Of a stretch of 64,000 nt of DNA, positions 3,924-24,178 are shown one piece after another (within the stretch, counting starts at the first letter, position 1; every line of letters begins with the position of its first letter). Under the pieces are notes generated by a model that ran no database searches, was not told the origin of the DNA, and worked only from the letters and a program-made list of their open reading frames with translations. The DNA comes from a virus (Duplodnaviria; Caudoviricetes), in IMG/VR virus record IMGVR_UViG_2892966740_000006, positions 22,938-86,937 of that record; one strand, written 5' to 3'. The position numbers and the translations under genes are program-made.

Positions 3924-4234
3924 TCAGCTCCAGTATTTCTCAGGGCGGGCAATGCCGGCTGGCAGTCGATGGTGTACTCGGCCAGATCCACACCATAGCG
4001 GGTGATATCGGCCCACCAGCGGCCACCCGGCTCCTTGCGCAACTTCACCATGGCGCGATCTTCCAGATAATCCAGTTCTTTGCGCACCTCCAGTGGAGAC
4101 ACATCAGGATAGATCGCTCGCATGGTTTGCTGGATCACATCTTCGACGACCTCGGTAGGCCGGGCGTTGTACGCTGCCAGCACTAGATACCAGCGCAGGC
4201 TTTCGCGGCGGATTTTGGCGGCATCGATATTCAT
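3924..4234 (-). CDS. Mu gp26-like HTH protein
   Basis: RRESLRWYLV...ELDYLEDR...ITRYGVDLAEY; position before gp27. Confidence 0.8.
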
Positions 4235-6977: not shown

Positions 6978-7433
6978 CTAAAAAAGCTGACCTTGGGGGA
7001 CGTTATCAGGCAGCAGCTCGTCGGCCTTGCTCAAAATCTCTTCGATCCGGCGGTCACACAGTTTGAACTTTGGCACCAGTATATTATTGACGGTGGCATT
7101 ATGTCCCAGCTCCCGGCAGTGTCTGTCATAGTCTGCCCGGATCTCTGCATCACGTAGCGCCCGCAACGCGGCGGCGCATTTCGGTACGTATAACCGCGTG
7201 TTCCCGTAGTGTTTGGTCAGTGTTCGGGCTGCATCCACTCCCACCACCTCAGCCAGCGCCGAAAAATACTGGCCTTCCTGCCGGGCGGTTTTAGGAATGG
7301 GGAAATGGGTGCCGCCCAACAGGTCGACCAGCTTCATGGTCATGGGCAGGCTGATCAGCCGCACCAGTTCACGGGCGTTTTCCGGCAGCAGGTGCTGGGC
7401 ACGCAGAATCGCGTCCTCTCTTACTTTTCCCAT
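6978..7433 (-). CDS. mor: Mor/C-family transcription activator
   Basis: LGGTHFPIPK...LYVPKC...RDAEI...LCDRRIEEIL. Confidence 0.85.
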   Translation of the reverse strand: MGKVREDAILRAQHLLPENARELVRLISLPMTMKLVDLLGGTHFPIPKTARQEGQYFSALAEVVGVDAARTLTKHYGNTRLYVPKCAAALRALRDAEIRADYDRHCRELGHNATVNNILVPKFKLCDRRIEEILSKADELLPDNVPQGQLF

Positions 7434-7852
7434 GCTTCAGTTCCTTTACCATGGCGGCGGGCATCGATTTCCAGCCCGATCATCAACCGGCGCAGCTGGT
7501 CATCATCCAGCCATGCCACCTTCTCAACCTTGAACATGCGGAGCGCCATTCCATCGGCGTAGTCCCATGGCCGTTTCTGGTCAGCCAGCAGAGCCTCAAC
7601 CTTGGCCATGTAGCGCTCGCGGTCATCTTGGGGCGTGGGACGTTTACCGATATTTCGCGCGGTCTTTTGCACAAATCCAAGGCGCTTCATTTCGGCCAGT
7701 ACGTCATCCAGTTGCTGCAGGGTCAGCTTGGTACTGCTGGTCTTGCCTTCGGCCAGACGGGCGAGCATGGCCCGATAGCTGTCATCCGCCATCTGCAGCT
7801 GCTGCTTGGCGATATGAATCTTGGAGATCATCGCCTTGCGTCTATCGGTCAT
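7421..7852 (-). CDS. gemA: Mu gp16/GemA family (DUF1018)
   Basis: ISKIHIAKQQLQMADDSYRAML...KTSSTKL. Confidence 0.85.
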   Translation of the reverse strand: MTDRRKAMISKIHIAKQQLQMADDSYRAMLARLAEGKTSSTKLTLQQLDDVLAEMKRLGFVQKTARNIGKRPTPQDDRERYMAKVEALLADQKRPWDYADGMALRMFKVEKVAWLDDDQLRRLMIGLEIDARRHGKGTEAWEK

Positions 7853-7871
7853 TGTTCTTCTCCTGGTCAAA

Positions 7872-7963
7872 CTCAATGCACGCGTGACCGGCCATGCCGA
7901 GCTTTATCAGAGGACGGCACCCCAGTAAGTGGATCGGGGCTGGCCGGTCACGGCTGCATTGAG
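7872..7963 (-). ncRNA. Conserved three-way-junction structured RNA, copy 1
   Basis: Long closing stem and two hairpins; 22-nt identity with 23581-23602. Confidence 0.7.
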
Positions 7964-8010
7964 GGTTAAAACACGTTGCGGAGCCTGTAACGCAGGCTCG
8001 ACACCGGGTT

Positions 8011-8421
8011 CTAAGTGGTACTACTTCGTCGCCAGATGAAATCCAATTCGCTAGGGAGTACCCATAAGTGCCGCATGTTTGCCACATTCACGACATCGCC
8101 GATTCGCGGGTATACCTCAATAGCATCGTTGCTGCCGTAGCCGACTCCATCCTTGATGTCCTGCAGCTCCTCCCAACTAATGCCATCGATCCAATGGCCA
8201 TCGTTTCCCAGACAAGTACGGCACACAGACAGGCGCACAATGTCGTTCGGCTCGGCATAAAGCTGCACCATGAAGTCCTTGCTCCAGTAGACCGCGAAGG
8301 GGAAATTCCTCCCCTTGATTTCAGGCCACCGATCACGCGGGGCGGGTGTCAGTACGGCCGGTAGCGTAGCTACTAGCTCACGGTTTGCTTTTTGCCGTGC
8401 TCGTCGTTGTTCTCGGTTCAT
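8011..8421 (-). CDS. Conserved phage hypothetical protein
   Basis: DGISWEELQDIK...AIEVYP...VVNVANMRHLW. Confidence 0.8.
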   Translation of the reverse strand: MNREQRRARQKANRELVATLPAVLTPAPRDRWPEIKGRNFPFAVYWSKDFMVQLYAEPNDIVRLSVCRTCLGNDGHWIDGISWEELQDIKDGVGYGSNDAIEVYPRIGDVVNVANMRHLWVLPSELDFIWRRSSTT

Positions 8422-9387: not shown

Positions 9388-9402
9388 TGCTGTCCTTTGG
9401 CT

Positions 9403-9457
9403 GCTCATCAGTACCGGACCACCACGCCCGGCAGACCACCCTTGCGGGCGGTTTCGC
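9403..9457 (-). ncRNA. Hammerhead ribozyme (type II topology)
   Basis: GC GAAA C-stemIII-GUC-stemI-CUGAUGA GC, with the full catalytic core. Confidence 0.88.
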
Positions 9458-9461
9458 TGGG

Positions 9462-9825: not shown

Positions 9826-10437
9826 TCATACCCCGGCAATATCCAGCGGAATCGGCACATACTGGTCTGCCTCGCCAACCCGCTCGTAGACGCGGATGTA
9901 CGACTTGGAGCATTGCACCCGTACCGAGTCACTGAGGGCCGTCATGGCTCGTTGCCATTTCTCGTCCTGAATCTCCAGACGACGCAAACCGAGGATGCGG
10001 CCGGTTGAAATCTTTCCCTCCTTGTCGACGTTGAAGGCGTCATTGATCAAGGCACGGATCTCGCTACGTGCTCCCTCGGTCCACTCGTGCACGCACTCGT
10101 CGATTAGTGCTTTGGCCGCCTGCAGTCCCTCGTCAAACGTCAGCGTGTCGGATACGGCCCGCTTGATCTGGTAGCGACCATCAAAGGTGGTCAGGGTGGT
10201 ATTGCCCTTGGCCCCGCCGACCTTGGCGCCATAACGCTCTGCCGACAGTTCGATAAAGGCCTGGATATCGGCAAAGGCCGTGGCCTTGAACGTAGCCAAA
10301 TGTGCTTTGACCTCAACGGCTTTCTTGACGATTTCGCTCACCAGCTCATCACGGGCGATATCGATGGGCTTGATGGTCTCGACCGGAATCAAACGCCCCT
10401 TGGCGTCCTTTTTGTATCCCTGCGGGATGGCATCCAT
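9826..10437 (-). CDS. DUF3164 family Mu-like protein
   Basis: GYKKDAKGRLIP...GGAKGNTTLTTFDG...SKSYIRVYER. Confidence 0.85.
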   Translation of the reverse strand: MDAIPQGYKKDAKGRLIPVETIKPIDIARDELVSEIVKKAVEVKAHLATFKATAFADIQAFIELSAERYGAKVGGAKGNTTLTTFDGRYQIKRAVSDTLTFDEGLQAAKALIDECVHEWTEGARSEIRALINDAFNVDKEGKISTGRILGLRRLEIQDEKWQRAMTALSDSVRVQCSKSYIRVYERVGEADQYVPIPLDIAGV

Positions 10438-10439
10438 GG

Positions 10440-10799
10440 TTATTTCCTCAGTCCTACTAGTTGTTTCACTTTGGCCAGTTCGGCCCGGTTCTTTTGCAGC
10501 CACTCCGGCGTCATCGCCACTTCATCGGCTGCCCGCCAAAATCTTTTTCGTGACGGCGGCGATGGCGGTTTATCCGGTGGCGGCTCCGGTACCGGGGTGT
10601 CTGGTGGGCTAGGCTCGGGCTGTGGTGGCGCTGGGGCGGTGGCGACCACCGGTGTGGCAGAGGCCGCCAGCTCGTCCAGATAGTCATCCCACACAATGCG
10701 CCGGGCCTTCTTCCGGTCCATGCCCATGCCAACCAGACGCTCAACCTCTTCGGCCAACCTTGCCTTGGTCATGTCATCCAGCTCGCTGGCCTGCGTCAT
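10440..10799 (-). CDS. Hypothetical Pro-rich protein
   Basis: ORF tiled in operon. Confidence 0.6.
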   Translation of the reverse strand: MTQASELDDMTKARLAEEVERLVGMGMDRKKARRIVWDDYLDELAASATPVVATAPAPPQPEPSPPDTPVPEPPPDKPPSPPSRKRFWRAADEVAMTPEWLQKNRAELAKVKQLVGLRK

Positions 10800-22795: not shown

Positions 22796-22999
22796 ATCGA
22801 ACTCCAAAAAAAATGAGGCCGCTCGGGCCTCGTTATTCCTTATCCTGGTATCGCTGACCGCACTGGTCTGAGCAGAACTCGTCAAAGTGATGCCGCACCC
22901 TATGACGCCCGGTGATCGGGTCACGGTCCTGCTGTACGACTTCGTGGATGACGCGATCCTCTATCGGCTTTCCGCAGTGCGGGCAGCGTGGGAGTGTGT

Positions 23000-23540: not shown

Positions 23541-23551
23541 GCCCTCTCCTT

Positions 23552-23644
23552 CCGCCGCCAGTGTTGAGCGCCCTCTACCGGCTTTATCAGAGGACGGCAC
23601 CCAAGCGAGTTGATCGGGGTGAAGGCGCTCAGGACTGGCGGCGG
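23552..23644 (-). ncRNA. Conserved three-way-junction structured RNA, copy 2
   Basis: CCGCCGCCAGT..TGAGCGCC closing stem; same core as 7872-7963. Confidence 0.7.
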
Positions 23645-23697
23645 GGCAAAGAAAAAGCCCGCGGGTGGCGGGCTTGTCATACTTCAATAACGGGTGA

Positions 23698-24178
23698 TCA
23701 CATCACCAGCACGCTGAAGCGCGATTGCAGGCCGATTGGGGAGAACGGGATGTCGTCATCAAGATCGTCCATCTTCTTCGGCGCTGGATCTGGCTGACGT
23801 CGAGGCGGCGCAGCCGGGGCGCTGTGCTGCTCACCTGCCCCATCACGCCCACCCAACATTTGCATACGGTCGCCGCGAATCTCCGTGCTGTAACGGTCCT
23901 GGCCGGTTTCTTTGTCCTGCCATTTGCGCGTACGGATCGAACCTTCCACGTACACTTGCGAGCCTTTTTTCAGGTATTGGGCTGCAACTTCGGCTGTTTT
24001 GCCAAAGAACACGACACGGTGCCATTCGGTCAGCTCTTCACGCTGGCCGGTTTGCTTGTTGTTGTACGTGTCGGTGGTGGCCACGGACAGTGTGGCAATG
24101 GCGTCGCCTAAGCATGTAACGCGTTTCAGGATCGCGGCCAAGGTTGCCGACGAGGATCACTTTGTTGACTGATGCCAT
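23698..24178 (-). CDS. ssb: Single-stranded DNA-binding protein (frameshifted)
   Basis: [39 protein letters not shown]. Confidence 0.92.

Follow-up and report, generated by a model that had tools for sequence, protein, structure and literature searches.

Host proteins alone act on G4oric, the complementary-strand origin in phage G4, whose DNA is single-stranded: according to PMC6783573, primase and single-strand binding protein (SSB) suffice to start synthesis at the T of a 5'-CTG-3' that lies beside three stem-loops, which create SSB-free stretches of ~30 nucleotides (nt). Signals of this G4 type have until now been associated with single-stranded phages and plasmids. Here we describe a folded element that occurs twice in a 64,000-nt stretch of Caudoviricetes DNA (hereafter the window; IMG/VR record IMGVR_UViG_2892966740_000006, positions 22,938 to 86,937), once in a Mu-like and once in a siphovirus-like prophage. 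The element is real, conserved and selected, and it goes beyond chance: its family numbers at least 28 distinct copies, among which compensatory changes are seen. In its way of working, it would come closest to G4oric and to the single-strand origins found in rolling-circle replicons. We regard it, tentatively and at a little under an even chance, as a putative primase-dependent signal of the G4 type for single-strand initiation, at which the lagging or complementary strand would be primed.

Like G4oric and the G4-type single-strand initiation sites (ssi) of plasmids, the element presents strand-specific hairpins flanking a short open stretch with 5'-CTG-3'. The letters around the start can be set side by side, GCCGTCC-CTA-CTG-C-AAAGCC in G4 and GCCGTCC-T-CTG-AT-AAAGCC in the window. 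The architectures are distinct, however: G4oric consists of three separate hairpins in a single-stranded DNA phage, whereas the element is one hairpin and a bubble inside a clamp of 20 base pairs (bp), carried by double-stranded temperate elements. Because of this difference, and because the priming function is only putative, we do not claim membership of the G4 type.

The single-strand origins (sso) that rolling-circle plasmids carry near the initiator are folded cassettes, non-coding and orientation-specific, with variable stems and few fixed unpaired letters, and they are exchanged among unrelated replicons. The element shares the non-coding, folded, orientation-specific form, the variable stems, the fixed unpaired letters, the exchange among unrelated replicons and the proximity to a rolling-circle initiator (for the general concept of sso, see PMC5714925). 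It differs from sso in that these are primed by RNA polymerase in Gram-positive plasmids and bear no sequence likeness to it.

Two groups of phage RNAs offer further points of comparison. The RNase III hairpins of T7 and lambda are intergenic, span about two helical turns with an internal loop, and lie just before the ribosome-binding site of early operons. The element, with a duplex of 18-23 bp, is like them in placement and length; they lack its branched top of 12 fixed letters. In the C4/CI antisense RNAs of P1, P7 and P4, which are cut from their own operon transcript, a closing stem presents conserved loops, and the element shares such a loop-presenting closing stem. An antisense RNA of the C4/CI type was rejected, as there was no Rfam match and no conserved complementary site emerged in cis, the range covered being 1.5 kb in the 28 listed loci and in the window.

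Two copies, one fold and a wider family

Both window copies lie on the minus strand, and all genes flanking them are read in that sense. Their parts were delimited by folding and by two covariance models, R1 (8 sequences, structure typed from the fold) and R2 (a structure-guided alignment of 5 diverse copies).

7869-7963, minus strand: element, copy in the Mu-like prophage (113.9 bits with R1, 107.3 bits with R2; folds)
7955-7963 with 7872-7880, minus strand: outer clamp stem of the Mu copy (fold)
7953-7954 with 7881-7882, minus strand: 2x2 internal loop of the clamp (fold)
7941-7952 with 7883-7894, minus strand: inner clamp stem (fold)
7936-7939 with 7920-7923, minus strand: hairpin P2, with loop 7924-7935 (fold)
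7895-7919, minus strand: bubble (fold)
7907-7918, minus strand: near-invariant 12-mer GCCGTCCTCTGA in the bubble, with CTG at 7908-7910 and its T at 7909 (alignment A8)
23550-23643, minus strand: element, copy in the siphovirus-like prophage (84 bits with R1, 96.2 bits with R2; folds)
23587-23598, minus strand: 12-mer of the second copy, with CTG at 23588-23590

An earlier interpretation made from the letters of the window (the sequence-only reading) had pointed to an RNA structure common to the two prophages, and its description of the copies holds. The 22-mer GCTTTATCAGAGGACGGCACCC has exactly two occurrences in the window, at 7901-7922 and 23581-23602 (plus strand), a recurrence found in none of 100 dinucleotide-preserving shuffles, even with two mismatches; GATCGGGG is present in both copies as well. 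On the minus strand, both fold alike, with a long closing stem and a 2x2 internal loop around two small hairpins, while the closing-stem sequences are unrelated. Both also stop, as had been stated, shortly ahead of a ribosome-binding site, which is of the GGAG type and not sequestered by the element; the start codon follows at a distance of 9-16 nt from the copies. RNA folding gives -54.4 and -44 kcal/mol for the two copies (z -7.2 and -3.9), equalled by none of 200 shuffles. With DNA parameters, the z values of the same copies are -7.8 and -5.2, and they range from -5.2 to -8.3 in all four copies folded; neither folding nor covariation can separate a DNA structure from an RNA structure. No promoter or terminator of the element's own was found in the listed loci or by a terminator scan. 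The possibility that the element is itself an intrinsic terminator was rejected, since the printed copies have no T-run after the clamp and the scan placed no terminator at the element.

The anatomy of the family was derived from 28 distinct sense-strand copies (alignment A8), to which the following counts refer. Pairing is seen in 93.7% of cells, compared with 72.3% in shuffles, and it falls to 26-37% when the partners are slid by 1-3 columns. The predicted covariation of the stems is borne out, with changes on both sides at 24 of 29 pairs; covarying pairs number 21 of 21 in the clamp and 3 of 4 in P2. This excess of pairing, together with the compensatory changes, indicates that the structure is under selection and the stem sequence is not. 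The clamp comprises 18-23 bp across copies, and its internal loop is not conserved, many copies having an unbroken clamp of ~18 bp. Among the 26 inner pairs, 12 cases of G-U stand against 10 of A-C mismatch, so that G-U is not in excess.

The second small hairpin that had been proposed, GCCG/CGGC, survives only in part. It does fold in both window copies, but it displays no covarying pairs and five departures without compensation. We therefore read the stretch from P2 to the clamp as an open bubble of 22-26 nt, that is, as conserved single strand. The first 12 letters of the bubble, GCCGUCCUCUGA, are identical in 25 of the 28 copies (the exceptions being L081, L090 and L094), and CTG stands at the same position in 27 copies, L094 having CAG. 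The bubble tail after CUGA is variable (UAAAGC, UAAGC, UACAA, UACAGC, UACCGC, AAAC, AAC, ACC, C or AAAAAC). The loop of P2 measures 6-17 nt and mostly holds an AYCAAC-like word.

Covariance-model searches of genomes and IMG/VR returned further homologues, and the view of a portable, structured, strand-specific module common to unrelated mobile elements is upheld. R2 matches 18 of 68 genomes of the host's bacterial family, in 6 of 10 genera and at 28 places. An even sample of the order yielded matches in 2 of 151 genomes, both within the same bacterial family, and 147 other genomes of the order, searched with stricter filters in use, gave no match. Among named records, true copies were found in Aquitalea aquatica, A. 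palustris, an Aquitalea metagenome-assembled genome and Chromobacterium sphagni. The genome of the window (3.35 Mb, 3 contigs) carries five copies, three in Mu-like prophages and two elsewhere, all on one strand (genome G000, contig C3: 374022, 468095, 2535647, 2976488 and 2992168). Its three Mu-like prophages are closely related to one another.

Pattern scans extended the set. A gapped-pattern scan of IMG/VR gave 107 stretches, and the model confirms 12 matches in the 79 new loci examined (80 fetched); the corresponding scan of genome_contigs gave at least 119 stretches, with 2 of 78 new loci confirmed among the matches listed. Exact 17-mer scans hit 33 stretches in IMG/VR and 38 in genomes; judged by inspection, 7 and 2 of these, respectively, are real homologues, the rest being chance-like. 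A blastn search of the INPHARED phages with 221 nt around the Mu copy returned no match.

The sequence-only reading had not recognised the family, in agreement with the Rfam searches. No family of Rfam 15 reaches its gathering threshold at either copy, and none with E up to 10 is convincing; the best sub-threshold matches at the copies (E = 3.4 and E = 0.038) are to unrelated or microRNA models. At gathering threshold, a scan of six homologous loci and the whole window found only hammerheads and nothing at the element. The only Rfam model that touches the Mu copy, DUF3800-IV RNA (RF02963), also has a long clamp around two small hairpins; membership of this family was rejected, the match scoring 17.1 bits against a gathering score of 60.7, with E = 3.4 and on the opposite strand. 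We found no paper describing the element in the literature, a search that left supplementary lists of candidate RNA motifs outside, where an earlier listing is possible.

A putative priming signal in its genomic setting

The record of phage G4 annotates a primer template at 3970-3997, with the start at 3998, which ends ...GCCGCCGTCC-CTA-CTG-CAAAGCC; synthesis begins at the T of CTG in ...GGACGGCGAAAGCCGCCGTCC-CTA-CTG-CAAAGCC. The eight letters 5' of the element's CTG fit this site, 8 of 8, with two skipped letters. An equally good fit is reached by 0.11% of random 8-mers of like composition and by 2 of 420 permutations (p about 0.001). On the 3' side of CTG, the window copies share AAAGCC with G4, and the homologous spacer of alpha3 and phiK keeps TCC-CTC-CTG-CTAAGCC.

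The genes around the element offer a second line of comparison. Each of the 28 listed copies is sense-oriented and has co-directional genes on either side, and a start codon follows nearly all of them after 9-21 nt. Fifteen precede a GemA-like gene, recognised by a Pfam match for the window copy and by N-terminal sequence in the other 14 loci; upstream genes differ among those loci, and Mor follows gemA in the Mu-type ones. Twelve of the 28 directly follow a gene of one family, which encodes ~120 amino acids (aa; about 115-135 aa), with homology BLAST-tested for five members (E 1e-4 to 1e-15) and judged by C-terminal likeness for the others. The remaining one is the second window copy, that of the siphovirus-like prophage, which comes after ssb and an intrinsic terminator. 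The features flanking the two window copies are as follows.

7421-7852, minus strand: gemA (Pfam GemA, 7.9e-25), with its start codon 16 nt after the element
6978-7433, minus strand: mor, middle-operon activator, next after gemA (Pfam Mor, 1.8e-10)
8011-8421, minus strand: upstream gene of the Mu copy, DUF7694 (Pfam DUF7694, 2.1e-15)
23655-23675, minus strand: intrinsic terminator ~10 nt upstream of the second copy (8-bp stem with 6 G-C pairs, then a T-run)
23698-24178, minus strand: ssb upstream of the second copy (Pfam SSB), in two frames (open reading frames (ORFs) 24038-24178 and 23698-24141)

In one locus of the ~120-aa group that was extended (L330), the genes come in the order CII(CP76), Ogr/Delta, a 751-aa Phage_GPA rolling-circle initiator (7e-76), an 82-aa gene, a 126-aa gene, the element, an HTH_17 excisionase-type gene, a 213-aa gene and an integrase, the ~120-aa-family gene lying 17 nt downstream of the 82-aa gene. 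With this gene order, L330 is a small P2/P4-like integrative replicon.

Each of the two copies that the window's genome has outside Mu-like prophages is directly preceded by an intrinsic terminator. In one of these settings, L073, the copy lies between the terminator and a sigma-70-like promoter (TTGACT, 17 nt, ATAAAT; by eye), which precedes an A+T-rich cargo gene (phrog_4245, weak Lcl_C match). The upstream gene of L073 (C3:468291-468635) has a 96.5% identical ~115-aa paralogue in the same genome (C3:3066366-3066710, G000). The paralogous locus matches L073 through the terminator and eight further letters, then diverges exactly at the 5' edge of the element, which is absent there; an AlpA-like gene is found instead. 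From this divergence at its edge, the element is taken to be optional cargo at a module junction.

Under a priming function of the G4 type, replication would displace or expose the gene-sense strand, either by rolling circle from the nick of a P2-type A protein or because a fork that moves along with transcription has it as lagging template. The clamp and P2 would fold on this strand, and the host SSB would be excluded from the short bubble. Host DnaG primase would then bind the bubble and lay down the first nucleotide of an RNA primer where it faces the T in the invariant CTG (7909 and 23589); the primer would copy leftwards across GCCGTCC and P2, and DNA polymerase III would extend it. We infer all of these steps. 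By analogy, the clamp and the hairpin around a bubble of 22-26 nt would do the job of the G4 stem-loops. With host proteins as partners, the core could be common to unrelated phages of a single host family while the stems drift compensatorily.

Such a function would explain the fixed CTG and its flanks, the drifting stems, the range limited to a single host family and the sharing by unrelated elements. It would likewise explain the rolling-circle-initiator and ssb neighbourhoods, the copies behind terminators and the missing G-U excess. If the element does prime, double-stranded temperate phages and a small rolling-circle integrative element would carry an exchangeable landing pad for primase of the G4 type; this would reveal a template preference of betaproteobacterial primase and provide a compact part for priming of single-strand DNA.

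A number of observations weigh against priming. An unbiased local alignment of the core over the whole G4 genome misses the origin, and 31 of 100 shuffles score as well. The likeness to G4 counts only since the site was named beforehand, and about a dozen informal comparisons preceded it. Alpha3 and phiK fail the 8-mer test, and a candidate site of plasmid R100 is without GTCC, so GCCGTCC is no general requirement of such sites. The CTG of G4 lies in open DNA 3' of three hairpins, whereas that of the element is inside a bubble closed by the clamp. We infer the location of the element on the displaced or lagging-template strand only from its co-orientation with GPA and flanking genes, and the window's genome has a single GPA gene, which does not lie near any of its five copies. 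No need for a priming signal of this kind is known in Mu-like phages. Other features are suggestive of RNA. A sense position just before start codons would be equally natural for RNA, and the L153 copy from IMG/VR lies ~30 nt before a terminator, in the manner of a 3' untranslated region. In two Mu-type loci (L102 and L083), a hammerhead ends 10-13 nt before the element. Motif X, a conserved hairpin just upstream of the element (described below), is RNA-like in its two G-U pairs, kept in 12 of 12 sequences; three of its pairs show compensatory changes.

Plasmids were inspected for look-alikes of G4oric, with weak matches only, those of E. coli lying between phage-plasmid structural genes. In R100 (L212 ~10420-10450, minus strand), a small G+C-rich hairpin followed by TA-CTG-ATTGAT, similar to the start region of G4, was seen by eye ~760-800 bp downstream of repA. 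Its strand and distance are those that we take to belong to the IncFII primase site; it is unannotated and was not used as support.

Alternative explanations

DNA-level priming is at least as likely as an RNA nature of the element, and the RNA explanations differ widely in how well they survive. It is almost as probable as priming, and thus also short of an even chance, that the element is a structured RNA in early polycistronic transcripts. The clamp would then be a processing or stability hairpin of the RNase III type, parting the upstream message from that of the downstream regulators (gemA-mor, or genes of the excisionase/AlpA type), and the bubble would bind a host protein or RNA, possibly as a released small RNA. 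The sense, intergenic placement of all 28 listed copies, nearly all 9-21 nt before a start codon, points in this direction, as do the clamp of 18-23 bp, which at two helical turns has the size of an RNase III substrate, and the RNA folding scores (z -7.2 and -3.9). The Mu-type operons are moreover rich in RNA devices, with hammerheads, two of them abutting the element, and with the fixed G-U pairs of motif X; the L153 copy precedes a terminator. These observations are countered by the lack of a promoter or terminator of the element's own, by the two copies that lie just behind terminators and by the L073 copy, which lies ahead of a promoter. G-U is not in excess over A-C, and an RNA of this kind leaves the fixity of these particular 12 letters unexplained.

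No complementary target emerged nearby, nor was one enriched in the host genome. No cis antisense target was found in the window, and none was consistent within 1.5 kb in the 28 listed loci, where GGACGG sites are scattered; an antisense match inside mor is confined to one lineage. For TCAGAGGAC, the host genome of 3.35 Mb contains three non-self sites, which is no enrichment.

If the element is indeed a structured RNA, it would found a new family with strong covariation and 12 nearly fixed letters, situated beside hammerheads in phage early operons; hammerhead-rich neighbourhoods are where new ribozyme classes were found before. Whether as priming signal or as RNA, it would be new, either in the architecture and host range of a primase signal or as a structured RNA family. 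In both cases it marks module junctions and provides a clean test case for telling RNA from single-strand DNA structure by comparative data.

It is improbable that the element is an RNA acting together with the upstream position held by a hammerhead or motif X, whether as a new ribozyme or cofactor or as a host-specific anticodon-arm decoy (CCGUC..UGAUAA) that disarms a tRNA-targeting defence, with the cassette spread among unrelated phages of one host family. The first of these roles taken by itself, a new self-cleaving ribozyme working alone or with motif X, we consider very unlikely. Hammerheads do occur in the same operons, 10-13 nt upstream of the element in two loci, motif X takes the place of the hammerhead in other Mu-type loci, and the number of fixed letters is, by general knowledge, similar to that of small ribozymes. 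Yet no Rfam ribozyme matches at E up to 10, the fixed letters lie on one strand of the bubble with a single nucleotide on the opposite strand, no pseudoknot partner was found, and the copies outside Mu-like prophages have no ribozyme neighbours.

The decoy role taken by itself is equally doubtful. Here, the bubble would mimic the anticodon arm of tRNA-Ile and act as a sponge for an anticodon nuclease or for a modification enzyme. The sequence-only reading had identified CUGAUAA as the loop of tRNA-Ile(GAU), and this is correct only in part: the host's own loop is UUGAUAA, while the 5' stem strand of the arm, CCGUC, is present in the element. Of the 41 distinct arms in the host, none but that of tRNA-Ile(GAU) (CCGUC UUGAUAA GGCGG) has CCGUC; the window (Aquitalea) copies read CCGUC-CUC-UGAUAA, in likeness to it, and a U-turn-like CUGA is kept in all copies but one. 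The same reading had named a variable CUGAUAA loop as grounds against mimicry. The loop is exact in 10 of 28 copies, and mimicry of tRNA-Ile is therefore refuted on these grounds. The triplet after CU is GAU in 13 copies, GAA in 13 and GAC in one, and the remaining copy has CUCAGA. The tRNA arm matches only 8 of the 12 invariant letters and needs an indel, and most copies have no anticodon-type stem closing a 7-nt loop. ARAGORN reported no tRNA in the window, and the 85 genome matches of the tRNA model (RF00005) include none at a copy.

Other resemblances (nut/boxB, boxA, put RNA, the sarcin-ricin loop, DNA uptake sequences, integron attC, DnaA boxes, CRISPR-repeat mimics, Y RNA and hepatitis delta virus (HDV)-like folds) were dropped because of a match of at most 7 letters or an unfitting architecture.

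Hammerheads, motif X and neighbouring genes

The hammerhead that the sequence-only reading had placed 1.5 kb upstream of the Mu copy is confirmed by Rfam as Hammerhead_II. It is listed here with its relatives in homologous loci and with motif X, which stands between the upstream gene and the element.

9395-9459, minus strand: type II hammerhead in the same operon, directly before a start codon (RF02276, 72.3 bits)
L102 1603-1665 and 2055-2117, L083 1425-1487, L077 2634-2698: further type II hammerheads (68-74 bits)
7967-8013, minus strand: motif X, conserved hairpin between the upstream gene and the element (12 sequences, 18 predicted pairs)

Hammerheads were found in three of the six homologous loci scanned, in addition to the window. 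Type II hammerheads are scattered in spacers of Mu-like early operons, typically directly before a start codon, and L102 has two within 500 nt.

Motif X takes the form UAGAACC.G..GUCGAGCC-[variable stem-loop]-GGCUCCGCA.....UUUUA and occurs also in L077, L079, L080, L081, L087, L094, L096, L100, L108, L141 and L155. The foot of its stem is the stop codon TAG of the upstream gene (8011-8013), and its place is taken by a hammerhead in L102 and L083. Motif X has no Rfam match; it could serve as a terminator-like signal or be another RNA device.

Members of the ~120-aa gene family include L082 1107-1487 and L073 1694-2041, together with those of L088, L092, L093 and L085. The family matches no Pfam or PHROG family, and the atlas gives only unnamed clusters below 0.9. 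An AlphaFold model of the protein (predicted local distance difference test (pLDDT) score 69) displays a long N-terminal helix followed by a small alpha/beta domain; Foldseek against the PDB returned nothing at E <= 0.001.

The ssb upstream of the second copy matches Pfam SSB in two parts, profile positions 1-27 in ORF 24038-24178 (5.4e-5) and 17-104 in ORF 23698-24141 (2e-28), and the cause is either a frameshift in the gene or an error of assembly. An AbiGi-like gene (6.4e-5) and a gene for a tRNA_anti-like OB-fold (8.5e-19) flank the GPA-type integrative element of L330 (G013); these genes, at 497-1084 and 1492-1950 of L330 and both on the minus strand, may be defence cargo. Metagenome contigs from four runs, probably of DNA, mostly match only the hammerhead core at 9393-9440, and one of them touches 7938-8014.

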